From Pseudomonas aeruginosa (GTDB lineage Bacteria; Pseudomonadota; Gammaproteobacteria; Pseudomonadales; Pseudomonadaceae), in contig NZ_LN831024.1 of the NCBI RefSeq assembly GCF_001457615.1, positions 6,284,980-6,316,979 of the forward strand: 32,000 bases of DNA, written 5' to 3'. Positions 231 to 32,000 of this stretch are shown one piece after another. The notes beneath the pieces are model-generated. The model saw only the letters and a program-made list of their open reading frames with translations. It ran no database searches and was not told the DNA's origin. How positions within the stretch are numbered: the first letter of the stretch is position 1; the number at the start of each line of letters is the position of its first letter. The position numbers and the translations under genes were made by a program.

Positions 231-1568
231 ATGCAAAGCCTGCTGATCCGCAATGCCCGGATGGTCAACGAGGGGCAGGTACGCGAAGGCGATCTGCTGG
301 TCCGCCACGGTCGCATCGAACGCATCGCCGGCTGCCTGGAAAACTGCGGCGCCAGCCGGGAGATCGATGCCGCCGGACGCTACCTGCTGCCGGGAATGAT
401 CGACGACCAGGTGCACTTCCGCGAGCCGGGTTATCCACAGAAGGGCTCGATCGCCAGCGAATCCCGCGCCGCCGTGGCGGGCGGCATCACCAGTTTCATG
501 GACATGCCCAATACCCGCCCGGCGACGCTGAGCCTCGAAGCGCTGGCGGAAAAGAAGCGCCTCGCCGCCGCCCATAGCGTGGCCAACTTCGGTTTCCACT
601 TCGGCGTCAGCCGCGACAACCTCGACACCGTGGCCGCCCTCGATCCACGCGAGGTCGCCGCGGTGAAGGTGTTCATGGGCGCCTCCACCGGCGACATGCT
701 GGTGGACGACCTGCCGACCCTGGAGCGCCTGTTCGCCAGCGTTCCGACCCTGCTGCTGAGCCATTGCGAAGACACGCCGCGGATCGAAGCCAACCTGGCG
801 CGCTGGCGACAACGCTTCGGTGAACGTATTCCGGCAGCCGCCCACCCGCGCATTCGCGACGCCGAGGCTTGCTACCGTTCCACCGCCCTGGCGGTGGAAC
901 TGGCGCAACGACATGGCACGCTGCTGCATGTCCTGCACTTATCCACAGCGCGTGAACTGGCCCTGTTCGAGGACAAGCCGCTGTGCCAGAAACGCATCAC
1001 CGCGGAAGTCTGCGTCCACCATCTGCTGTTCGACGACAGCGACTACGCCCGCCTCGGCCATCTGCTCAAGTGCAACCCGGCGATCAAGAGCCGCGAGGAC
1101 CGCGACGCCCTGCGCAGGGCGCTGGCCGGCAACCGCCTGGACGTGATCGGCACCGACCACGCGCCGCACGCCTGGGCCGAGAAGCAGCAGGCTTATCCAC
1201 AGGCGCCGGCCGGCCTGCCACTGGTCCAGCATGCGTTGCCGGCACTCCTGGAGCTGGTCCGCGAAGGCTGGCTGTCGCTTGCCACCCTGGTGGCGAAGAC
1301 CAGCCACCGGGTCGCCGAACTGTTCGCCATCGCCGATCGCGGTTTCCTCCGCGAAGGTTACTGGGCCGACCTGGTGCTGGTCAGCGAACTGGAGCACCCG
1401 GCGCTGGCCAGCGCCATGCCGCTGCTGTCGCGCTGCAACTGGACGCCGTTCCGCCACCGGGCATTCCACCATCGGATCGATACCACCATCGTCTCCGGGC
1501 AACTCGCCTGGCACGCGGGACGCCTGTCCGACGATTGCCAGGGACTGCCCCTGCGGTTTTCCCGCTGA
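231..1568 (+). CDS. pyrQ: Dihydroorotase / cyclic amidohydrolase family protein (second, pyrC2/pyrQ-type dihydroorotase)
   Basis: 445-aa GC3-rich ORF. It carries amidohydrolase signatures LLPGMIDDQVHFREPG, MDMPNTRP, VIGTDHAPH. Position and size match PA5541 as I recall it. Confidence 0.85.
   Translation: MQSLLIRNARMVNEGQVREGDLLVRHGRIERIAGCLENCGASREIDAAGRYLLPGMIDDQVHFREPGYPQKGSIASESRAAVAGGITSFMDMPNTRPATLSLEALAEKKRLAAAHSVANFGFHFGVSRDNLDTVAALDPREVAAVKVFMGASTGDMLVDDLPTLERLFASVPTLLLSHCEDTPRIEANLARWRQRFGERIPAAAHPRIRDAEACYRSTALAVELAQRHGTLLHVLHLSTARELALFEDKPLCQKRITAEVCVHHLLFDDSDYARLGHLLKCNPAIKSREDRDALRRALAGNRLDVIGTDHAPHAWAEKQQAYPQAPAGLPLVQHALPALLELVREGWLSLATLVAKTSHRVAELFAIADRGFLREGYWADLVLVSELEHPALASAMPLLSRCNWTPFRHRAFHHRIDTTIVSGQLAWHAGRLSDDCQGLPLRFSR
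431..439 (+). promoter_or_regulatory. Perfect DnaA box TTATCCACA
   Basis: Read directly from the sequence. Inside pyrQ as GGT TAT CCA CAG (G-Y-P-Q). Confidence 0.7.
939..947 (+). promoter_or_regulatory. Perfect DnaA box TTATCCACA
   Basis: Inside pyrQ as CAC TTA TCC ACA GCG (H-L-S-T-A). It uses the very rare TTA Leu codon. Confidence 0.7.
1193..1201 (+). promoter_or_regulatory. Perfect DnaA box TTATCCACA
   Basis: Inside pyrQ as GCT TAT CCA CAG (A-Y-P-Q). Confidence 0.7.
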
Positions 1569-1612: not shown

Positions 1613-2857
1613 CTAGCGCAGGGCTTTCACCGCCGCGCCAAGGAAGGCATAGGTCTCCTCCTCGCGATCGTCCATCTCCGGCTTCGGCCAGGCGCTCCAG
1701 ACCACCGCCACGATCTTCTCCTTGCGGTTGATGTAGAGGTACTGGCCGAAGATGCCCTGGGCTTCGAAGGCCCCGCCGTCATGCTCGGGCAGGGCCTTGG
1801 CGCCCACCGGGAAGGTCCACCACTGGTAGCCGTAGCCGAGCGCGTATTCGCCATCGTAGAGCTTGCCCGGGGCCAGGTGGGAAGTAGCCTCGACGCGACT
1901 GGCACGATCGACCCAACCTTCGGGGAGGATACGTTCGCCATCGATCACCCCGTCCTCGAGGACGAACTGGCCGAAGCGGCCATAGTCGCGCAGGGTCGCG
2001 CTCAAGCCGCTGCTGCCGATCTCTTGCCCGGCCGGCGATTCCAGTTGCCAGAAGCCGTCGCTCTCCATGCCCATTCGCGCCCAGATCCGCTCGGACAGGT
2101 AGTCGCTCACCGGAATGCGGGTCGCCGCGTGCAGCAGCTCGCTCTGCAGGTGCGACTCGCCGGTGCTGTAGGTGAAGTGGGTACCGCTCGGGTACTGCCG
2201 CGGCAGGCTCGCCAGCAGCCGCAGGATGCCACCGGGACGTTCGGCGAGCTGGGCGTCGAACATCTGCCGGCGGTCGGACTTCGGATCGCGATAGGTCTCG
2301 TTCCAGCGGACCCCGGAACTCATCTGCAGGACCTGCTCCACCGTCACCCCCTGGTAGGCGGAGCCGGCCAGGCTCGGCAGGTACTTGTCCACAGGCTGGT
2401 CGAGAGCCAGCAGGCCCTGCTGCACGGCGGCGCCCACCAGGGTCGAGGAGATCGACTTGACCACCGAGAACGAGGTCCAGCGCGTGCGTTCGTCGTTGCC
2501 CAGGCCGTAGCGCTCCAGGGCGACCTTGCCATCCTTGAGGACCAGCACCCCGCCAACGCGGTTGCGCCGCATGAAATCGTCGACGCCGTATTCCTCGCCG
2601 CCGATCCGGTAGCGCGGCGCGATGGCCACACCCGCCGGCAGCGGACGGACCTTGGTCCCCTTGTGGATAACCCGGGTCGGATAGACCTTGTCCATGTTCC
2701 GGTAGGTGTCCGGCTGGTATTCCGGGATCAGTTCATAGAGATCGGCGGCACGGCCGATCCGCGGGTTTTCCACAGCCGCGTCGGCGCCGGCCGAGCCGCT
2801 TGCCGAGACGAACAGTGCCAGCAGGGCCGGCCGGAAGACTGATATACAGCTACGCAT
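1613..2857 (-). CDS. Secreted serine hydrolase of the beta-lactamase/transpeptidase-like family (PA5542 / PIB-1-like)
   Basis: ATG at 2857 is preceded by AAGGA (minus strand ...ATAAGGAAAACGTCC ATG). It has a signal peptide MRSCISVFRPALLALFVSASGSAGA and an SxxK motif in FSVVKSISS. The 38 extra N-terminal codons in the ORF track were rejected because they lack an SD. Confidence 0.8.
   Translation of the reverse strand: MRSCISVFRPALLALFVSASGSAGADAAVENPRIGRAADLYELIPEYQPDTYRNMDKVYPTRVIHKGTKVRPLPAGVAIAPRYRIGGEEYGVDDFMRRNRVGGVLVLKDGKVALERYGLGNDERTRWTSFSVVKSISSTLVGAAVQQGLLALDQPVDKYLPSLAGSAYQGVTVEQVLQMSSGVRWNETYRDPKSDRRQMFDAQLAERPGGILRLLASLPRQYPSGTHFTYSTGESHLQSELLHAATRIPVSDYLSERIWARMGMESDGFWQLESPAGQEIGSSGLSATLRDYGRFGQFVLEDGVIDGERILPEGWVDRASRVEATSHLAPGKLYDGEYALGYGYQWWTFPVGAKALPEHDGGAFEAQGIFGQYLYINRKEKIVAVVWSAWPKPEMDDREEETYAFLGAAVKALR
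2662..2670 (-). promoter_or_regulatory. Perfect DnaA box (TGTGGATAA on + strand)
   Basis: Inside the beta-lactamase-family gene. The coding strand reads GTT ATC CAC AAG (V-I-H-K). Confidence 0.7.
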
Positions 2858-2928
2858 GGACGTTTTCCTTATGACCGGAAGCAGCTCCGGCTTCGTCGTT
2901 TTTATGGATGTGGACTGGCGTCTCAGGG

Positions 2929-2937
2929 TTATCCACA
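2929..2937 (+). promoter_or_regulatory. Perfect DnaA box TTATCCACA
   Basis: In the 86-bp spacer between the DUF1850 stop (2944) and the beta-lactamase-family start (2857). Confidence 0.7.
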
Positions 2938-2943
2938 GGACGT

Positions 2944-3342
2944 TCAGTCGCTCGGGTCCCGTATCGGACACGCCCAGAGTTCGACCGCCGGGCGCTCACG
3001 GTCCGGCGGACCGATCCAGCGCGCCAGCGCATCGCAGCGCCCCTGACGGCAGATCCGGTAGTCGCCGGCCTCCGGTGTGCGCCCCAGCCGCAACGGTTGC
3101 AACGGCGGCACCCCACGGTGGTAATGCCAGGCGCCGTCACGCAGCACGGCGCCCTCGGGAATCTCCATCCCCGCCCCGCTGCCCCGCACCCGGGCCTCTT
3201 CCAGCAGCAGGCCGCGCTCACTCAGGCGATAGTCTTCTTCCCAGAGCACCTTCTCGACCGTGTGTTGCCAGGCCAGGGTGAACGACTGCAGCGGCAGCGT
3301 CGCCCAGACGCTGCCGGCCATGCCCAGACACAGCGCGATCAC
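2944..3342 (-). CDS. DUF1850-type small protein associated with TAXI-TRAP transporters
   Basis: This is the C-terminal part of the 2944..5103 ORF frame. A GTG at 3342 overlaps the permease TGA (3339-3341) as GTGA; the alternative start is ATG 3321. The sequence ...LAWQHTVEKVLWEEDYRL...GSGAGMEIPEGAVLRDGAWHY... resembles DUF1850 proteins found next to TAXI permeases. Confidence 0.65.
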   Translation of the reverse strand: MIALCLGMAGSVWATLPLQSFTLAWQHTVEKVLWEEDYRLSERGLLLEEARVRGSGAGMEIPEGAVLRDGAWHYHRGVPPLQPLRLGRTPEAGDYRICRQGRCDALARWIGPPDRERPAVELWACPIRDPSD

Positions 3343-22086: not shown

Positions 22087-22959
22087 TCAACGGATGTGGG
22101 CGAGAACGCCCTGCAGTTCATCCAGGGAGCTGTAGCGGATGACCAACTGTCCCTTGCCCTTCTGACCATGCCGGATCTGCACCGAAGCGCCCAGGCGCTC
22201 GGCCAGGCGCTGTTCCAGGCGGGCGATGTCCGGGTCGCTCTTGACCGGTCCCGCAGGCTTGCCCGGGGCATGCGTCCACTGCCGAACCAGGGCTTCGGTC
22301 TGACGTACGGTCAGCCCATGTGCGACAACATGTCGCGCCCCTTCCACCTGCCGTTCTGCCGGCAGACCGAGGAGCGCACGGGCATGGCCCATCTCCAGGT
22401 CGCCATGGGAAAGCAGGGTCTTGATCTCTTCCGGCAGGCCGATCAGGCGCAGCAGGTTGGTAATGGTCGCGCGCGACTTGCCGACCGCTTCCGCGACCTG
22501 CTGCTGGGTCAGCTGGAACTCCTGCTGCAAGCGCTGCAGGGCAGCGGCTTCCTCGATCGGGTTAAGGTCCTCGCGCTGGATGTTCTCGATCAGCGCCATG
22601 GCGATGGCCGCTTCGTCCGGCACGTCGCGCACCAGCGCCGGGATCTTTTCCAGTCCGGCCTGCTGGCTGGCCCGCCAGCGCCGCTCGCCGGCGATGATCT
22701 CGTAGCGGCCATTGGCGATCGGCCGCACCACGATGGGCTGCATCACGCCCTGGGCCTTGATCGACTGCGCCAGTTCCTCCAGCGCCTGAGGGTCCATGTC
22801 GCGACGCGGCTGGTACTTGCCGCGCTGCATCAGGTCGAGGGGGATCTGCTGCAACTCGCGGCGGTCGGCCTGTACGGCTTCCTCCTGCAGTTTGGCGGGA
22901 CTCGAGCCGCCCAGCAGGGCATCGAGCCCGCGTCCCAGTCCACGTTTCTTGGCTGCCAT
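22087..22959 (-). CDS. parB: Chromosome partitioning protein ParB (Spo0J)
   Basis: 290 aa with the ParB box GERRWRA and an HTH. AAGGA SD upstream of the start, 9-nt gap after parA. Confidence 0.97.
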   Translation of the reverse strand: MAAKKRGLGRGLDALLGGSSPAKLQEEAVQADRRELQQIPLDLMQRGKYQPRRDMDPQALEELAQSIKAQGVMQPIVVRPIANGRYEIIAGERRWRASQQAGLEKIPALVRDVPDEAAIAMALIENIQREDLNPIEEAAALQRLQQEFQLTQQQVAEAVGKSRATITNLLRLIGLPEEIKTLLSHGDLEMGHARALLGLPAERQVEGARHVVAHGLTVRQTEALVRQWTHAPGKPAGPVKSDPDIARLEQRLAERLGASVQIRHGQKGKGQLVIRYSSLDELQGVLAHIR

Positions 22960-22968
22960 GCGGGTTCC

Positions 22969-23757
22969 TTATGCGGTTGCGGCGCGGCCTTGGGCGCGCT
23001 GGCGGCGGACCAGCTCGCCGGCCAGCGCCAGGTAGGCGATGGCGCCGCGGGATTGCTTGTCGTAAACCAGCGCCGGCATGCCGAAGCTGGGGGCTTCGGC
23101 GAGGCGCACGTTACGCGGGATGACGGTGCTGTAGAGGGTGTCGCCGAAATGCTCCTGCAACTGCGCGGAGACATCATTGGTCAGGCTGATGCGCGGATCG
23201 TACATGGTCCGCAACAGACCCTCGATCTTCAGCGTCGGGTTGAGCAACTGGCCGATGCGCTGGATGCTGTTCATCAGGTCGGTCAGCCCCTCCAGCGCGT
23301 AGTACTCACACTGCATGGGGATGATCACGCCGTCGGCGGCGGTCAGCGCGTTGACGGTGAGCATCGACAGCGACGGCGGGCAGTCGATGAGGATGTAGTC
23401 GTAGTTCTCGCGGATCGGCGCCAGCGCGTTGCGCAGGCGATTTTCCTTCATGTCCATTTCCAGCAGCACCACTTCCGCGGCGGTCAGGTCGCGGTTGGCC
23501 GGCAGCAACTGGTAGCCGCCGTGTTCGGAGAACTGCATGGCCTCGGCGAGGTTGCACTCGCCGGTGAGCACGTCGTAGATGGAGTGCTCCAGGTTGTGCT
23601 TGTCGATGCCGCTGCCGGTGGTGGCGTTGCCCTGGGGATCCAGGTCCAGCAGGAGGACGCGGCGCTTGGTCGCCACGAGGGAGGCCGCGAGGTTGATACA
23701 GGTCGTGGTCTTGCCGACACCGCCTTTCTGGTTGGCGATCGCGAATACCTTAGCCAT
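22969..23757 (-). CDS. parA: Chromosome partitioning ATPase ParA (Soj)
   Basis: 262 aa with the deviant Walker A KGGVGKTT. Confidence 0.97.
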   Translation of the reverse strand: MAKVFAIANQKGGVGKTTTCINLAASLVATKRRVLLLDLDPQGNATTGSGIDKHNLEHSIYDVLTGECNLAEAMQFSEHGGYQLLPANRDLTAAEVVLLEMDMKENRLRNALAPIRENYDYILIDCPPSLSMLTVNALTAADGVIIPMQCEYYALEGLTDLMNSIQRIGQLLNPTLKIEGLLRTMYDPRISLTNDVSAQLQEHFGDTLYSTVIPRNVRLAEAPSFGMPALVYDKQSRGAIAYLALAGELVRRQRAQGRAATA

Positions 23758-23775: not shown

Positions 23776-24420
23776 TCATGCTGTGCGCCGCAGTATCAGC
23801 AGATGCCGCTGACCTTGGCAACCGGGTACCGCCAGCGCGTGCTCGGCTTCGACCCGGAAATCCTCCGGGAGTGCCGCCAGCTCTTCGTTCGGATGCACGC
23901 CCTTCATCGCCAGCCAGCGGGTTTCCTGGCCACCGAGGTGGCGGGTCCAGTTGGCGAAGTCCTCCAGGCTGCTGAAAGCGCGGGAAACGATGCCATCGAA
24001 GGGGCTCTCGGGACGGAAGGCTTCCACCCGGCTGTGCACGACTTCGAGGTTGGCCAGCTTCAGCTCGAGCTTCACCTGGGTCAGGAAGCGGGTCTTCTTG
24101 CCGTTGCTGTCGAGCAGGGTCAGGCGCTTTTCCGGGAACAGGATGGCCAGCGGCACGCCGGGCATGCCGCCGCCGCTGCCGACATCCAGCCAGTTATCCC
24201 CAGCCTCGGCATAAGGCACGATGCTCAGGCTGTCGAGCAGGTGGCGCGAAACCATCTCGTCCGGGTCGCGTACGGCGGTCAGGTTGTAGGCCTTGTTCCA
24301 TTTGATCAGCAGGGCCAGGTAGGCCAGCAGCTGGCGTTGCTTGTCGGCGTCGAGGGCGACGCCTAGCTCGTCAGCACCGCGCGCGAGTTCGTCGGCGTGG
24401 TGTTGGGTTACCGCAGACAT
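23776..24420 (-). CDS. rsmG: 16S rRNA (guanine527-N7)-methyltransferase
   Basis: GidB-family sequence with [14 protein letters not shown] 24420 overlaps the mnmG TGA (24420-24422) by 1 nt, which suggests translational coupling. Confidence 0.95.
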
Positions 24421-26312
24421 CAAGCGCTCTGCTCCAGTTGGCGGCCAGAGGCACGCTTCTTCAGGTGGATCAACAACAGCGAAATCGCAGCCGGCGTGAC
24501 GCCGGGGATCCGCGAAGCCTGTCCGAGGGTTTCCGGACGGGCCTGGTTCAGCTTGTTCTGGATTTCCTTCGACAGGCCGGAAATCCCCAGGTAATCGATA
24601 TCCACAGGCAGGCGGGTATCTTCGCTGGCGCGCAGACGGGAGATTTCCTCCTGCTGGCGGTCGATGTAGCCGGCGTACTTGGTGCGAATCTCCACCTGCT
24701 CGGCCACCTGGGGGTTATCCACAGCGTTGCCGGTGATCTCCACCAGGCCGGCGTAATCGATCTCGGGGCGGCTCAGCAGGTTGAGCAGATTGTATTCATG
24801 GGTCAGCGGCGTACCGAAGCGCTCGGCGATGGCGTCGCCCTGCGGGGTATTCGGCCGCACCCAGGTGCTCTTCAGCCGCTGTTCCTCGCGTTCGATACCT
24901 TCGCGCTTGGCTTCGAAGGCAGCCCAGCGCCGATCGTCGACAAGGCCCAGCTCGCGTCCCTTCTCGGTGAGACGCAGGTCGGCGTTGTCCTCGCGGAGGA
25001 TCAGGCGGTATTCCGCCCGCGAGGTGAACATGCGGTACGGCTCCTGGGTGCCGAGCGTGATCAGGTCGTCCACCAGCACGCCGATGTAGGCCTCGTCGCG
25101 GCGCGGGCACCAGCTGTCCTTGCCTTGCGAACGCAACGCAGCATTGGCGCCGGCCAGCAGGCCCTGGGCGCCAGCTTCCTCGTAGCCGGTGGTGCCGTTG
25201 ATCTGGCCGGCGAAGAACAGGCCGCCGATGACCTTGGTCTCCAGGCTGTACCTGAGATCGCGGGGATCGAAGAAGTCGTACTCGATCGCATAGCCCGGCC
25301 GCACGATGTGGGCGTTTTCCATGCCACGGATGGAACGCACGATCTGCAGTTGCACGTCGAACGGCAGGGACGTGGAAATGCCGTTGGGATACAGCTCGTG
25401 GGTCGTCAGGCCTTCCGGCTCGAGGAAGACCTGGTGGCTTTCCTTGTCGGCGAAGCGATGGATCTTGTCTTCGATCGAAGGGCAGTAGCGCGGGCCGATG
25501 CCTTCGATCACACCGGAATACATCGGCGAACGATCGAGGTTGGCGGCGATGATCTCGTGGGTCCGGGCGTTGGTATGGGTGATCCAGCAACTGACCTGCT
25601 CGGGATGCTGTTCCTTCGAACCGAGGAAGGACATCACCGGGATCGGCGTGTCGCCCGGCTGCTCGGTCATCACCGAGAAGTCCACGCTGCGCCCGTCGAT
25701 CCGCGGCGGCGTACCGGTCTTCAGCCGGCCGACCCGCAGCGGCAATTCACGCAGACGCCGCGCCAGTGCGATGGACGGCGGGTCGCCGGCGCGTCCGCCT
25801 GAGTAGTTCTCCAGGCCGATGTGGATAAGTCCGCCGAGGAAGGTGCCGGTAGTCAGGACCACGTTGTCGGCATGGAAGCGCAGTCCCATCTGGGTCACTA
25901 CGCCGCGGACCTGATCCTGCTCGACGATCAGGTCGTCGCAGGCCTGCTGGAATATCCACAGGTTCGGCTGGTTTTCCAGTGTATGGCGGATAGCGGCCTT
26001 ATAGAGCACGCGATCGGCTTGTGCACGAGTGGCGCGCACTGCCGGCCCCTTGCGGCTGTTAAGGATGCGGAACTGGATACCGCCCTTGTCGGTGGCTTCG
26101 GCCATGGCGCCGCCAAGGGCGTCGATTTCCTTGACCAGATGGCTCTTGCCGATGCCGCCGATGGCGGGGTTGCAGCTCATCTGCCCCAGGGTTTCCACAT
26201 TGTGGGTCAACAGCAGGGTTTTCACACCCATGCGCGCAGCCGCGAGTGCGGCTTCGGTGCCTGCATGGCCACCGCCGATCACGATTACGTCAAAACGGGT
26301 AGGGAAATCCAC
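24420..26312 (-). CDS. mnmG: tRNA uridine 5-carboxymethylaminomethyl modification enzyme MnmG (GidA)
   Basis: FAD motif [15 protein letters not shown] prefer the GTG at 26312 (GAGG 6 nt upstream, giving 630 aa) over the GTG at 26315. Confidence 0.96.
24715..24723 (+). promoter_or_regulatory. Perfect DnaA box TTATCCACA
   Basis: Inside mnmG. The coding strand reads GCT GTG GAT AAC (A-V-D-N). Confidence 0.65.
25820..25828 (-). promoter_or_regulatory. Perfect DnaA box (TGTGGATAA on + strand)
   Basis: Inside mnmG. The coding strand reads CTT ATC CAC ATC (L-I-H-I). Confidence 0.65.
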
Positions 26313-26439
26313 CACGCACCTCGGCCTGTTCAGAAGCAGGAATTCAGGAAAGCCGGACAGTATAAGGATTTAGCGAACCTGAATGAAGACTCCTGGACAA
26401 AAAATAGCCAATCCAGATCGAGGGAGCAAAACGGCTCGG

Positions 26440-26706
26440 CGGGCTTACAAAAAATAAAAGGAAAGGAATGTTTATATCTTTTTAGAACTTGTGTTTATTG
26501 CTTAGCAGCGGCTTTTCTGTTGATAAGTACGTCGAGCCCAGTAAAGACATAGCCTGTAGCGAATGATAAGGCTGTCCCAAACCCTATCTGGGCCCTGTTG
26601 ATAAGCGTTTTTTAGCTGTGGATGGAATGGCTCGTTATCAACATGTGGAGTTATGCACAGAGCTTCGGCGGGTTTATCTACCCTCCTGTCCCTGGGGTTT
26701 TCCACA
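26440..26706. other. oriC-like module upstream of mnmG: AT-rich tract followed by a cluster of DnaA-box variants
   Basis: AT-rich tract 26440-26510. 1-mismatch boxes: TGTTGATAA 26518-26526 and 26596-26604, TTATCAACA 26635-26643, TTATGCACA 26651-26659, TTTTCCACA 26698-26706. 2-mismatch boxes: TGTGGATGG 26617-26625 and TGTGGAGTT 26644-26652. Confidence 0.6.
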
Positions 26707-26784
26707 GGTTTCAGGCGAGCGTATCCGGGCCGCGGCAGGACCGCAGCCAGGTAGGAGAAGGAGATGGAAAGGCGTGGGAAAGGC

Positions 26785-27009
26785 TCAGTCGTTGCCGCTT
26801 TCCAGCGTATCGATGGATGACGACAGGCGCTCGAAGCGGCGCTTGGCGGAGACCTGGAAATCCCGCTCGGAGCCCTCGTTAGCGGGTTTGCGCAGCAGTA
26901 GCCGAGCACTGAGCCCGCTAGAGCGGTCGTAACTGCCGAACCAGTCGATCATCTGTCCGACCTGGCATTCGCCGCCGAGCCACACCGCCAGGTTGGCTAC
27001 GATCTCCAT
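26785..27009 (-). CDS. Hypothetical small protein (74 aa), downstream member of a two-ORF cassette
   Basis: MEIVANLAVWLGGECQVGQMIDWFGSYDRS...IDTLESGND. By my hand count GC3 is 60/74 (about 81%), which is host-like. It has no SD of its own, and its ATG lies 13 nt upstream of the stop of the preceding ORF. I recognise no family. Confidence 0.5.
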   Translation of the reverse strand: MEIVANLAVWLGGECQVGQMIDWFGSYDRSSGLSARLLLRKPANEGSERDFQVSAKRRFERLSSSIDTLESGND

Positions 27010-27305
27010 GCTGTAGTGTCCGAGTGCTCGCCGTGGGACGCCTTGGGAGCCGAAGGCGAGGGCCCCGCCTGGCCGGTATCGACGGAGTCCAGGGTCTGCA
27101 ACAGCTCTTTTCGCAGAATCTCTTCCAGGCTTGTGGATAAACCGCTTACCGGGTTGACTTGCGTGCACGGAACGTCCCGGCGCGTGGCGATAGCGCCAGG
27201 CGAGACAACGGGATAGATACGCCGTTCGAGAGGGGCGAGCAGATAGAGATTGACCACAGCGCAGCGCCTTCGCGGACGCCGGATCGGAGCGCGGTGCCTG
27301 TGCAT
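26997..27305 (-). CDS. Hypothetical protein (102 aa from ATG 27305), upstream member of a two-ORF cassette
   Basis: GGGAGAGG lies 3 nt (GGAG core 6 nt) upstream of ATG 27305. Over the last 86 codons my hand count gives GC1/GC2/GC3 of about 64/52/70%, the coding-type ordering but below host GC3. The basic N-terminus is MHRHRAPIRRPRRR, followed by ...LEEILRKELLQTLDSVD.... I recognise no family. Confidence 0.4.
   Translation of the reverse strand: MHRHRAPIRRPRRRCAVVNLYLLAPLERRIYPVVSPGAIATRRDVPCTQVNPVSGLSTSLEEILRKELLQTLDSVDTGQAGPSPSAPKASHGEHSDTTAWRS
27132..27140 (-). promoter_or_regulatory. Perfect DnaA box (TGTGGATAA on + strand)
   Basis: Inside the 102-aa hypothetical ORF as GGT TTA TCC ACA AGC (G-L-S-T-S). 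Confidence 0.7.
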
Positions 27306-27472
27306 AAACCTCTCCCAGGTGGATATCCATCCCATGCAGACCGACATCGGCGCAGATGGTTTTCTCGGGGACGAAGCGGCGCGCCGGCAATCCATGCCTG
27401 CGTGGTTGAGTGCCGGCGGCAAGGGGCACAGTGAAAGGAAAGTACGCAGAACCGGAGCGAACCTTGCCCTGG

Positions 27473-27481
27473 TTATCCACA
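27473..27481 (+). promoter_or_regulatory. Perfect DnaA box TTATCCACA
   Basis: 22 nt beyond the mnmE stop codon, next to the small hairpin CTCGGC-GTGG-GCCGAG (27484-27499). Confidence 0.7.
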
Positions 27482-27503
27482 ACTCGGCGTGGGCCGAGCC
27501 CCA

Positions 27504-28871
27504 TTACTTGCCGATGCAGAAACTCGAGAAGATGCGACCCAGCAGGTCGTCGGGGGTGAATGCGCCGGTGATTTCGCCCAGGTGCTGCTGGGCCTGGCGC
27601 AGATCCTCGGCCAGCAGTTCGCCGGCGCCATTGTGGATAAGTTGGCTGTGGCCATGCTCCAGCGCCTGCCCTGCCAGGCGTAGCGCTTCCAAGTGGCGCC
27701 GGCGGGCGCTGAAACCGCTTTCCGCGGTCTGTTCGAAGCCCATGCAGGCCTTCAGGTGTTCGCGCAGCAGCTCCAGGCCGGCGCCGGTGCGCGCCGAGAG
27801 GGTGATGGTGACGTGGCCGTCCGCGCTTTCCTCGAGGCCAATGGACTCTGTGGACAAATCCGCCTTGTTGCGGATCAGGGTGACCTTGCCCGGTTCCGGT
27901 CGCTGGTCGAGAAACTCCGGCCATAGGGAAAACGGGTCCGCTGCTTCCGGGGCGGTGGCGTCCACCACCAGCAGCACGCGATCGGCTTCGCCGATGGCTT
28001 TCAGCGCACGTTCCACGCCGATCTTTTCCACATGGTCCTCGGTATCCCGCAGGCCTGCGGTGTCCACCACATGCAGGGGCATGCCATCGATGTGGATATG
28101 TTCGCGCAATACATCGCGGGTGGTGCCGGCTATGTCCGTGACGATGGCCGCCTCGCGACCGGCCAGGGCATTCAGCAGGCTGGACTTGCCGGCATTCGGT
28201 CGTCCGGCGATGACCACGGTCATGCCGTCGCGCAGCAGGGCGCCTTGGGAAGCTTCGCGCTGCACTGTGGATAATTCTGTGCGTACTTTTTCCAGAAGCC
28301 CCAGTACATGGCCATCGGCGAGGAAGTCGATTTCTTCCTCGGGGAAGTCGATGGCGGCTTCGACATAGATGCGCAGGGAAATCAGTTGCTCGGTCAATGC
28401 ATGTACCCGGCGTGAGAATTCGCCCTGCAGGGAACGCAATGCATTGCGCGCGGCCTGCTCCGAGCTGGCCTCGATCAGATCGGCGATGGCTTCGGCCTGG
28501 GCCAGGTCGAGCTTGTCGTTGAGGAACGCGCGCTCGCTGAACTCGCCCGGTCGCGCCTGGCGGGCGCCCAGTTCCAGACAACGCTGCACCAGCAGGTCGA
28601 GTACCACGGGGCCGCCGTGCCCCTGCAGTTCGAGTACGTCTTCGCCGGTGAACGAGTTCGGGCCGGGGAAATACAGTGACAGGCCTTCGTCGATCACCTG
28701 CCCACCGGCATCGAGGAACGGTCCGTAATGCGCATGCCGGGCTTTCAGCTGGCGTCCGCTCACGGCCACGGCCATCTGTCCGGCGAGAGGTCCGGAGACG
28801 CGGACGATTCCCACGCCGCCGCGGCCCTGGGCGGTAGCGATCGCGACGATGGTTTCGGTGGCGGCTTGCAT
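27504..28871 (-). CDS. mnmE: tRNA modification GTPase MnmE (TrmE/ThdF)
   Basis: The start is set at ATG 28871 ([27 protein letters not shown]), with GGAG upstream. It has the G1 motif GRPNAGKSS and the C-terminal CIGK. 455 aa. Confidence 0.96.
27632..27640 (-). promoter_or_regulatory. Perfect DnaA box (TGTGGATAA on + strand)
   Basis: Inside mnmE. The coding strand reads CTT ATC CAC AAT (L-I-H-N). Confidence 0.65.
28266..28274 (-). promoter_or_regulatory. Perfect DnaA box (TGTGGATAA on + strand)
   Basis: Inside mnmE. The coding strand reads GAA TTA TCC ACA GTG (E-L-S-T-V), again with the rare TTA codon. Confidence 0.65.
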
Positions 28872-28890
28872 GTGGATATCTCCGGATAGC

Positions 28891-28915
28891 AAGACGCCCC
28901 TCGAGGGGGCGTCTT
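28891..28915. other. Perfect 10-bp palindromic hairpin in the yidC-mnmE spacer
   Basis: AAGACGCCCC-TCGAG-GGGGCGTCTT, flanked by the DnaA-box variants TGTGGATAT (28871-28879, overlapping the mnmE ATG) and TGTGGACAG (28918-28926). Confidence 0.5.
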
Positions 28916-28941: not shown

Positions 28942-30678
28942 TCAGGCGGTCTTCGCGGCTGCTTCGATCTTGCGGGTAATGTACCACTGCTGTGCGATCG
29001 ACAGGCAGTTGTTGACTACCCAGTACAGCACCAGACCGGCTGGGAACCAGAGGAAGAAGAAGGTGAAGATGATCGGCATCAGTTTCATCACCTTGGCCTG
29101 CATCGGGTCCGGCGGGGTCGGGTTGAGCATCTGCTGGATCAGCATGGTGCCGCCCATGACGATCGGCAGGATGAAGAACGGATCCTTCACCGACAGGTCG
29201 GTGATCCAGCCGAGCCACGGCGCCTGGCGCATTTCCACGCTTTCCAGGAGTACCCAGTAGAGGGAGAGGAAGACCGGCATCTGGACCAGGATCGGCAGGC
29301 AGCCGCCCAGCGGATTGATCTTCTCCTTCTTGTACAGCTCCATCATCGCCTGGGACATCTTCTGCCGATCGTCGCCGTGCTGTTCCTTGATCGCCTGCAT
29401 CTTCGGCGACACCGCGCGCATGCGCGCCATCGAACGGTAGCTGGCGGCGGACAACGGGAAGAAGGCCAGCTTGATCAGGACGGTCAGGGCGATGATCGAC
29501 CAGCCCCAGTTGCCGATCAGGCTGTGGATATGTTGCAGCAGCCAGAAGATCGGCTGGGCGATGAACCAAAGGAAACCGTAGTCGACGGTCAGTTCCAGGC
29601 CCGGGGAGAGTTCCTTCAGGTGCTTCTGGAGTTTCGGGCCGGCATACAGGGTCAGGTCGGTTTCCACCTTGCTACCCGCCGGAACGCTCAGGGTCGGGCC
29701 GGTGAAACCGACGATGTAGTTGCCCTGGCCGTCCTTGCGGGTCATGACCTGGTGCTGCTCGCCCTTGGTCGGAACCCAGGCGGTCACGAAGTAGTGTTGC
29801 AGCCAGGCGACCCAGCCACCCTGCACGGACTCCTTGAACTGTTCCTTGTCCATGTCCTTGGTGGAGATCTTCTTGTACGGCGAATCCGGGGTCCAGACCG
29901 CGGCGCCGAGGTAGGTGGACACCCCGGTGGCGGTGGTCGAGGACGGGTCGGCGCTGCCGTCGCGCTTGAGCTGGGCGAACAGGTTGCCGCTCCAGGTCTT
30001 GCCGCTCTGGTTGTCGATCAGGTAGCTGACGCCGACCTGATAGGCGTTTTCATTGATGCACTCGATCTTCTTCTGGGCCTTTTCCTTGTCCGAGCAATCG
30101 GCTTTCAGGCCACGGTGGAAGGTGAAGCGCTTGATGTAGTTGACACCGTCGTGGCTGAAGCTCAGGTCCACGACCAGTTCGTTCTGGCCGTCGGCCAACT
30201 GGTAGCTGCTCTGCGCACTGTGGAACAGCGGGCGGCCGGCGCTGCTGGCGTCCGGGCCGTCGGCACCGGTGAGGCCGCTCTGCGCCAGGTAGGTACGTTC
30301 GCGACCGTTGTCGAACAGCGGGAACGGCACGTCCGGACGGTCCAGGCGGCGCGGATACTGCAACAGGCCGAGCTGGACGATATCGCCGCCACGGGGATCG
30401 ATGGCCAGGTCGAGGACGTCGGTCTTCACCTGGATCAGCTTGTCGCTGACCGCAACCGGCTTGTCGGCGGCTTCGCTGCCGGCCGCGCTGCTCTGGGCAG
30501 TGGGAACGTCACTGCTGGTGCCCGAGGCGGACGGAGTGTCCGGCAGGCCTTGCGTGGTGTTCATCGAAGCGCTGGCGGCGGGCAGCTCAGGCTGACCGTA
30601 ATCCTTGTTCCACTGGAGAACCAGCAGGTAGGACACGACTGCAAGGGCGACGATGAGAATCGAGCGTTGAATGTCCAT
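28942..30678 (-). CDS. yidC: Membrane protein insertase YidC
   Basis: 578 aa with an N-terminal TM, a large periplasmic domain and the conserved C-terminal 5-TM core (...[15 protein letters not shown]...). Confidence 0.97.
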
Positions 30679-31475: not shown

Positions 31476-31534
31476 GATTCGGTACCTGGGTTGACGACTT
31501 GAGGTCGCAGTGACCCCGTTTAAAGAGACCGGCG

Positions 31535-31563
31535 ATTCTAGTGAAATCGAACGGGCAGGTCAA
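31535..31563 (-). promoter_or_regulatory. Sigma70-type promoter of rpmH-rnpA
   Basis: The minus strand reads TTGACC (31563-31558), a 17-nt spacer, then TAGAAT (31540-31535), about 60 nt upstream of the rpmH ATG. Confidence 0.6.
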
Positions 31564-31774
31564 TTTCCAACCAGCGATGACGTAATAGATAGATACAAGG
31601 AAGTCATTTTTCTTTTAAAGGATAGAAACGGTTAATGCTCTTGGGACGGCGCTTTTCTGTGCATAACTCGATGAAGCCCAGCAATTGCGTGTTTCTCCGG
31701 CAGGCAAAAGGTTGTCGAGAACCGGTGTCGAGGCTGTTTCCTTCCTGAGCGAAGCCTGGGGATGAACGAGATGG

Positions 31775-31783
31775 TTATCCACA
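31775..31783 (+). promoter_or_regulatory. Perfect DnaA box TTATCCACA (oriC)
   Basis: Read directly. It is followed 6 nt later by the 1-mismatch box TTTTCCACA (31790-31798). Confidence 0.85.
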
Positions 31784-31836
31784 GCGGTTTTTTCCACACG
31801 GCTGTGCGCAGGGATGTACCCCCTTCAAAGCAAGGG

Positions 31837-31845
31837 TTATCCACA
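31837..31845 (+). promoter_or_regulatory. Perfect DnaA box TTATCCACA (oriC)
   Basis: Read directly from the sequence. Confidence 0.85.
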
Positions 31846-31922
31846 AAGTCCAGGACGACCGTCCGTCGGCCTGCCTGCTTTTATTAAGGTCTTGATTTGC
31901 TTGGGGCCTCAGCGCATCGGCA

Positions 31923-31931
31923 TGTGGATAA
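31923..31931 (-). promoter_or_regulatory. Perfect DnaA box (TGTGGATAA on + strand) (oriC)
   Basis: Read directly from the sequence. Confidence 0.85.
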
Positions 31932-32000
31932 GTCCGGCCCGTCCGGCTACAATAGGCGCTTATTTCGTTGTGCCGCCTTTCCAATCTTTGGGGGATATCC

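Follow-up and report, generated by a model that had tools for sequence, protein, structure and literature searches.

Which role can be assigned to an origin-like array of DnaA boxes directly upstream of mnmG in Pseudomonas aeruginosa, in the very slot that holds oriC in E. coli, if the functional origin of this organism is the rpmH-dnaA spacer 5 kb away? The question goes back to an original prediction made from the sequence alone, which named a relic, a silent or backup origin, a DnaA-controlled mnmG promoter and a titration site as possible answers. We therefore analysed the window, i.e. the whole 32-kb stretch of DNA that contains the module. The locus is already known and the prediction is a correct rediscovery: we are highly confident that the module is the published oriCII (oriC2, pae301), the second DnaA-dependent origin-type module of P. 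aeruginosa. In the following, functional statements on oriCII rest on the cited papers, and the sequence comparison was done here.

The mnmG-upstream module and its identity

On the minus strand, the window carries parB (22087-22959), parA (22969-23757), rsmG/gidB (23776-24423) and mnmG/gidA, and further on mnmE (27504-28892) and yidC (28942-30678), with the rpmH-dnaA spacer at its right end. The identities of mnmG, mnmE, rsmG and yidC are backed by NCBIfam equivalog models, and among the matches listed for MnmG the P. jinjuensis protein is the closest one (96% identical). Transcription of mnmG points away from the module. The true start of mnmG is probably the second GTG at 26312, because this codon has the better Shine-Dalgarno spacing and also reproduces the published distance between the start codon and box 10 at 26518, which is exactly 205 nt. 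Between mnmG and mnmE there is an intergenic stretch of 1188 bp. Within its first 469 bp upstream of mnmG the GC content falls from about 0.63 to 0.34-0.36 (100-bp windows, 26400-26549), in agreement with the sharp drop that had been predicted for this spacer.

A scan for DnaA boxes using TTATCCACA and allowing up to one or two mismatches returned five boxes with one mismatch and two boxes with two mismatches between 26518 and 26706 (Table 1), which are identical to the sites that had been listed beforehand within 190 bp. In a chance test with 1000 shuffles, the low GC content is accounted for because the shuffles were made from the 469-bp spacer itself with its dinucleotides preserved. None of the 1000 shuffles reached the five boxes with at most one mismatch (mean 0.07, maximum 2) or the seven boxes with at most two mismatches (mean 1.03). 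Besides, the predicted AT-rich tract of about 70 bp on the mnmG side (26440-26510) contains the least stable 40-bp duplex of the window: among all 31,960 positions, 26445-26484 has the weakest nearest-neighbour stability with a dG of -41.6 kcal/mol compared to a window mean of -61.6 (sd 3.9), which is about 5 sd away. The second least stable duplex, at 31585, belongs to the rpmH-dnaA spacer (oriCI). The AT-rich tract and the DnaA-box cluster upstream of mnmG are thus real and strongly non-random. Relative to the R1-type box, the tract takes the same position as the 13-mers of E. coli oriC. We also looked by eye for DnaA-trio motifs and found no clean repeat, and we make no claim in this respect.

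Table 1. Features of the oriCII locus and its surroundings in the window. Offsets (+) are counted from the R1-type box, mismatches refer to the box used in the scan, and column identities to the alignment of 11 Pseudomonas/Stutzerimonas loci.
Feature	Position	Strand	Basis and remarks
mnmG (gidA), first gene of the gidAB-parAB operon	24420..26315	-	NCBIfam TIGR00136, 5e-278
5' UTR end with Shine-Dalgarno GAGGTG	26316..26329	-	invariant, column identity 1.00
p1 -10 hexamer TATACT (putative)	26359..26364	-	invariant; fits the published p1 geometry
p1 -35 hexamer TTCATT (putative)	26382..26387	-	17 bp upstream of the -10; column identity 0.85
A/T tract TGGCTATTTTTTGTC (minus strand), just upstream of the -35	26395..26410	-	column identity 0.88
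AT-rich tract, candidate DNA-unwinding element of oriCII	26440..26510	.	duplex stability, GC 0.34-0.36
R1-type DnaA box, published box 10, TTATCAACA	26518..26526	-	1 mismatch; scan, alignment, published map
DnaA box 9, TTATCAACA, +78	26596..26604	-	1 mismatch; poorly conserved in the genus, column identity 0.65
Weak box, CCATCCACA, +99	26617..26625	-	2 mismatches; TGTG core kept in the genus, column identity 0.85
DnaA box 8, TTATCAACA, +117	26635..26643	+	1 mismatch; conserved middle forward box, column identity 0.91
DnaA box 7, TTATGCACA, +133	26651..26659	+	1 mismatch; matches TTWTNCACA
Weak box, TTATCTACC, +156	26674..26682	+	2 mismatches; TTAT core conserved, column identity 0.78
R4-type DnaA box, published box 6, TTTTCCACA, +180	26698..26706	+	1 mismatch; column identity 0.92
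P. aeruginosa-specific insertion between oriCII and mnmE, about 720 bp, GC 0.63	26785..27503	-	comparison with ten loci
oriCI, primary origin, rpmH-dnaA spacer, cut by the window end	31480..32000	.	box geometry

The identity with oriCII follows from a direct comparison with the published map. The locus is named oriCII by Wawrzyniak et al. 2026 (PMC13438810) and oriC2 by Weigel 2025 (bioRxiv 10.1101/2025.08.05.668638). Our module occupies the same place upstream of gidA/mnmG, i.e. the spacer directly upstream of mnmG within the parB-gyrB origin region, and its five boxes have the published distances and orientations. As in the published map, boxes 9 and 10 point in the same direction as gidA, and the two matches to TTWTNCACA are boxes 6 and 7. 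We found no difference of substance. The R1-type boxes of oriCII (26518) and oriCI (31658) are 5.1 kb apart, compared to a published distance of 5.2 kb between the two origins (Weigel 2025).

The published record reaches from autonomous replication (1990) via in vitro opening and dispensability (2006, as far as the later accounts report it) and genus-wide conservation (2025) to DnaA-dependent promoter control (2026). According to the account in Weigel 2025, two autonomously replicating sequences were isolated by Yee & Smith 1990. As summarized in PMC13438810, Jiang et al. 2006 found that an 836-bp oriCII fragment works as a plasmid origin and that on the chromosome only oriCI is necessary and sufficient; the latter finding is reported in the same way in PMC4403523 and by Weigel 2025, and what Gao 2015 (PMC4403523) says about Jiang et al. 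matches overall. Weigel 2025 adds from the same study that prepriming complexes formed on both origins in vitro, more weakly on oriC2. The dual configuration of oriC1 and oriC2 is found in 88 of 91 Pseudomonadaceae and 138 of 163 Halomonadaceae (Weigel 2025). The assignment of the functional origin to the rpmH-dnaA spacer is what the cited papers hold as well, and the tests that had been proposed for the module (autonomous replication, unwinding, DnaA binding, conservation and DnaA-responsive expression) have largely been published already.

Conservation and comparison with E. coli-type oriC and oriCI

To place oriCII among its relatives, 80 loci around relatives of MnmG were fetched from one-genome-per-species contigs, and mnmG, mnmE, mioC, yidC and rsmG were located in each of them. 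The alignment comprises 11 Pseudomonas/Stutzerimonas loci, namely P. aeruginosa and ten others, and here conservation comes in islands. The Shine-Dalgarno sequence and TATACT (26364-26359) are invariant, TTCATT and the A/T tract upstream of it are nearly so, parts of the AT-rich tract are conserved, and six box positions recur, which, counted from the R1-type box, are 0, +99, +117, +133, +156 and +180. Between the boxes, the sequence is free to change: column identity is 0.86 within the boxes versus 0.60 between them (Mann-Whitney p = 7e-13), although this contrast is somewhat inflated because the boxes partly anchor the alignment. At the position of box 8, a box within two mismatches is present in all 11 loci, and within one mismatch in 10. 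Conservation stops just past the R4-type box. The spacer alignment, which had been suggested as a check, therefore comes out in favour of the module, and the oriCII architecture is present in 10/10 of the other Pseudomonas/Stutzerimonas loci.

The same geometry extends beyond the genus. Upstream of mnmG, a span of 179-180 bp between R1 and R4 is found in 11/11 Pseudomonas/Stutzerimonas, 9/9 Enterobacterales and 8/9 Alteromonadales/Vibrionales loci, and these loci have in common that the reverse boxes lie on the mnmG side and the forward boxes on the far side. A different mnmG-upstream arrangement was seen in seven loci (Marinobacter, Oleiphilus and others), with two perfect forward boxes 108-111 bp apart, no reverse R1-type box, and the AT-rich minimum either between the two forward boxes or close to the first. 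These loci seem to represent a separate version of the mnmG-side module.

E. coli-type oriC (mnmG-oriC-mioC, as in Enterobacterales, Vibrionales and Alteromonadales) and oriCII are both located directly upstream of an mnmG gene that is transcribed away from them. In both, an AT-rich unwinding element on the mnmG side is followed about two helical turns further on by a reverse R1-type box, and the boxes are reverse in the left half and forward in the right half. The distance from R1(-) to R4(+) is 180 bp in either case (26518/26698 in oriCII, 168/348 in E. coli oriC), and a conserved TGTG near the position of R5M (+55 to +57) is common to oriCII and E. coli-type oriC. This confirms the expected order of elements, and it agrees with the statement of Weigel 2025 that the two P. 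aeruginosa origins are built on the same overall plan as E. coli oriC. We infer that oriCII is the positional and architectural counterpart of E. coli-type oriC.

In contrast, several details set the two apart. Between R1-100 and R1+195, oriCII has no GATC site, whereas the five dam-clade origins that we compared have 10-14; P. aeruginosa is placed outside the dam clade of Gammaproteobacteria (Weigel 2025). The GATCTnTTnTTTT 13-mers of E. coli oriC are missing as well. The middle forward box is found at +117 in oriCII and at +106 (R2) in E. coli, and box 8 can be regarded as the analogue of R2. At +141, where E. coli has R3, no Pseudomonas locus has a reverse box, and forward boxes are found at +117 and +133 instead. 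The neighbouring gene is mnmE (in P. aeruginosa with the additional insertion) rather than mioC, which oriCII lacks, and, according to the cited papers, oriCII is not the primary origin of its chromosome, unlike E. coli-type oriC. Since BLAST returned no hit for the spacer in any complete E. coli genome, even with the E threshold at 10, the link between oriCII and E. coli oriC consists of position, orientation and spacing only. oriCII thus works in the manner of an E. coli-type origin and takes the same slot. As several of the features that define the E. coli type fail, oriCII is best filed under its own published name.

A like geometry was also found within the window itself. The boxes of oriCI comprise an R1-type box at 31658(-), weak boxes at +55 and +99 (two mismatches; +99 is also the offset of the two-mismatch box at 26617 in oriCII), and forward boxes at +117 (perfect), +132 and +179 (perfect). 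Both origins thereby share an identical geometry: counted from R1, the weak reverse box stands at +99, and the forward boxes follow at +117, +132/133 and +179/180. Around R1, 25/34 bases are identical in register, and a tract of low duplex stability precedes R1 in both. They differ in that the boxes at +117 and +179 are perfect in oriCI and none is perfect in oriCII. As a side observation, oriCI has an extra perfect reverse box at +265; the rpmH-dnaA spacers of two other loci likewise have perfect boxes at +117, +179 and about +265, and one of the two also has the box at +132.

Promoter control and alternative readings

Besides its origin-type geometry, the module is linked to the expression of the genes behind it. 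The operon gidAB-parAB is transcribed mainly from p1, a promoter directly upstream of gidA (Wawrzyniak et al. 2026, PMC13438810). A fragment with DnaA boxes 6-10 boosts p1 activity, and so does extra DnaA; in absolute terms, the gain from the box fragment is small (from about 515 to 620 Miller units). In EMSA, the box 6-10 fragment is shifted by purified DnaA at 5 nM, and deletion of boxes 6-10 leads to less ParB (PMC13438810). The idea of a DnaA-controlled mnmG promoter, one of the options offered at the outset, is supported in that paper by binding of DnaA to boxes 6-10 and the accompanying rise of p1 activity. On the side of the sequence, the putative -35 hexamer starts 130 bp from box 10, equal to the published distance. 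Our strict scan of 26250-27560 for sigma-70 consensus promoters and terminators called nothing, and both hexamers are weak; for this reason the placement of -35 and -10 leans on conservation and the published distances. The A/T tract upstream of the -35 is possibly an UP-element-like sequence, with a column identity that exceeds by far the 0.40 of its flank (26411-26444). For a DnaA-activated promoter, the sequence data thus provide the box geometry and the conservation of -10, -35 and boxes on the one hand and the blank consensus scan at p1 on the other, with binding and activation taken from PMC13438810 only.

Based on these data, we propose the following mode of action. The elements of oriCII follow one another in the order mnmG, p1, AT-rich unwinding element, reverse R1-type box, array of weak and strong boxes and R4-type box. 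According to the literature, DnaA occupies this array cooperatively. On a supercoiled plasmid, in these accounts, the DnaA-loaded array then opens the AT-rich tract, loads the helicase and sustains replication; on the chromosome, initiation is carried out by oriCI, with oriCII being dispensable, and the loaded array serves as an upstream activating region of p1. The output of gidAB-parAB therefore rises with the availability of DnaA. The array may also sequester some DnaA near the origin, and p1 would point away from the unwinding element, which is also the case at E. coli gidA. In P. aeruginosa, the mismatch in R1 and the poor IHF position would represent a lineage-specific weakening of the copy, as the comparison with its relatives suggests.

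A different reading would be that oriCII is a working chromosomal origin in vivo, firing together with oriCI or as a backup under particular conditions. No structural element of an origin is missing from it, purifying selection acts on its architecture throughout the genus, and plasmid replication and prepriming complexes are on record in the accounts given by PMC13438810 and Weigel 2025. Moreover, for Halomonadaceae the prediction is that the mnmG-side origin is more robust than the other one (Weigel 2025), and marker-frequency data could not easily separate the origins because they are only about 5 kb apart. However, the finding of Jiang et al. 2006, as cited, that only oriCI is necessary and sufficient and that oriCII is weaker in vitro argues against such a role, as do the viability of the box 6-10 deletion strain, for which no replication defect is reported (PMC13438810), a mismatch in the R1-type box that is absent from the ten related loci, and a score of 4/9 at the canonical IHF position. 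We consider a working or backup origin on the chromosome unlikely. Slightly further from what we would expect is an extended scenario, in which oriCII fires on the chromosome at times (with oriCI compromised, at certain growth rates or in a subset of cells), the mnmG-side origin and E. coli oriC are orthologs, and both P. aeruginosa origins, with their common box geometry, stem from an ancient duplication. If true, P. aeruginosa would be a case of a natural bacterium that can use two DnaA-dependent origins at a distance of 5 kb.

Equally doubtful is the view that oriCII is mainly a titration or reservoir site for DnaA, like datA or the clusters in B. subtilis, with its promoter and origin activities being incidental. 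The whole window holds 34 boxes within one mismatch compared to 2.0 expected, together with 21 matches to TTWTNCACA; the intragenic perfect boxes are built from rare codons; and the p1-with-boxes reporter rises in the box 6-10 deletion, which the authors credit to released DnaA (PMC13438810). Nevertheless, this view leaves the strict box orientation, the conservation of the 180-bp span, the adjacent unwinding element and the invariant promoter unexplained. Each of the five boxes deviates from the perfect match, contrary to what a high-affinity sink would show, and no replication-timing phenotype is reported for the box 6-10 deletion. DnaA-regulated promoters (dnaA, nrdAB) and clusters such as datA or those of B. 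subtilis resemble oriCII in having boxes upstream of a DnaA-responsive promoter that may titrate DnaA, but they are devoid of an adjacent unwinding element, origin-type geometry and autonomous replication. By far the least probable of these readings is a relic, in which an ancestral origin has lost its function and is decaying. According to PMC4403523, Jiang et al. considered it possible that the second origin was once functional and is no longer used, and the species-specific R1 mismatch, the weak IHF position and the 720-bp insertion alongside could be seen in this light. Against a relic, six box positions, the unwinding element and the promoter are conserved across 11 species with the sequence in between free to vary, DnaA binds the region and its deletion lowers ParB (PMC13438810), and the dual configuration persists in 88/91 Pseudomonadaceae (Weigel 2025). 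We therefore maintain that oriCII is an origin-type module which on the chromosome would act on p1.

In this reading of an origin-type module acting on p1, oriCII is of interest as a second origin-type module on a bacterial chromosome, one that would couple the initiator DnaA to parAB, which serve segregation, and to gidAB, which serve translation fidelity, and it has a bearing on the question of how the E. coli origin acquired its place next to mnmG. It can also be taken as a positive control, as an experimentally validated element and its likely roles were recovered from sequence alone. Our own additions are small and concern the 180-bp span between R1 and R4 in oriCI, oriCII and E. coli-type origins, the degenerate R1 and IHF positions and the adjacent species-specific insertion; they could guide the question why oriCII is the weaker origin in P. 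aeruginosa.

Lineage-specific features and further DnaA boxes

The R1-type box reads TGTTGATAA in P. aeruginosa and TGTGGATA in all ten other loci, and the G-to-T change is therefore lineage-specific; with the mismatch repaired, TGTTGATAA becomes TGTGGATAA. Boxes 10 and 9 lie inside an exact 11-nt direct repeat, CTGTTGATAAG (26517-26527 and 26595-26605), 78 bp apart, and share the G-to-T deviation from the genus consensus; one box may have been copied onto the other. For IHF, scoring was done at a fixed position, with the C of the site WATCARNNNNTTR placed about 21-22 bp beyond R1; there E. coli reaches 7/9 and some Pseudomonas loci (two examples) 8-9 of 9, with a random mean of 3.0. We do not regard the site in P. 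aeruginosa oriCII, with its 4/9, as convincing.

A further peculiarity is the insertion next to the module. The gap between mnmE and mnmG measures 407-613 bp in the ten other loci versus about 1190 bp in P. aeruginosa. Within 26785-27503 there are two overlapping orphan ORFs of 74 aa (26785-27009, minus strand) and 102 aa (26997-27305) with weak codon periodicity. The 74-aa protein occurs residue for residue on more than 1000 contigs, whose names are almost all P. aeruginosa, and the ORFs are annotated as 'hypothetical protein' only, again almost all from P. aeruginosa. The insertion gave no Pfam/NCBIfam match, no similarity to any of the 80 fetched loci or to other parts of the window, and no plasmid match. 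When 26250-27560 was scanned with Rfam at E up to 1, no RNA family turned up, and an sRNA or riboswitch in this region was rejected on these grounds. The insertion contains the two perfect boxes at 27132(-) and 27473(+), which the original prediction had listed further on, and in addition TTATGCACA at 27299. The perfect boxes are indeed present, but they lie outside the conserved module because the insertion is absent from the ten other loci; for the same reason, we rejected the insertion as part of the origin.

Taken together, the R1 mismatch, the weak IHF position and the insertion would be in line with the report that oriCII is the less active origin in vitro. In this context, PMC4403523 reports the suggestion of Jiang et al. 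that structural changes demoted a once-functional origin, and the lineage-specific changes might be such changes, as we infer.

Beyond the origin region, a separate cluster of DnaA boxes is located within coding sequence at 431-2937. It comprises perfect TTATCCACA sites at 431, 939, 1193, 2662 and 2929, TTTTCCACA at 2766 and three further boxes with one mismatch, and it falls into a dihydroorotase-family gene (231-1568, plus strand) and a serine-hydrolase/beta-lactamase-family gene (1613-2971, minus strand). From 3000 to 24000, the scan found no box within one mismatch. Each perfect box of the cluster uses at least one rare codon (TTA, CCA, ACA, ATA, GTT or GCT, each accounting for at most 0.06 of its synonymous family), which suggests selection on the DNA. 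Judged by its sequence, the cluster could be a datA-like DnaA-binding site about 29 kb from oriCI.

Finally, perfect boxes inside mnmG and mnmE flank oriCII at 24715, 25820, 27632 and 28266, with the rare codons CTT, TTA, ACA and GCT. The box at nucleotide +487 of mnmG (25820-25828, encoding Leu-Ile-His-Ile) keeps its position and orientation in 9/11 Pseudomonas/Stutzerimonas loci.
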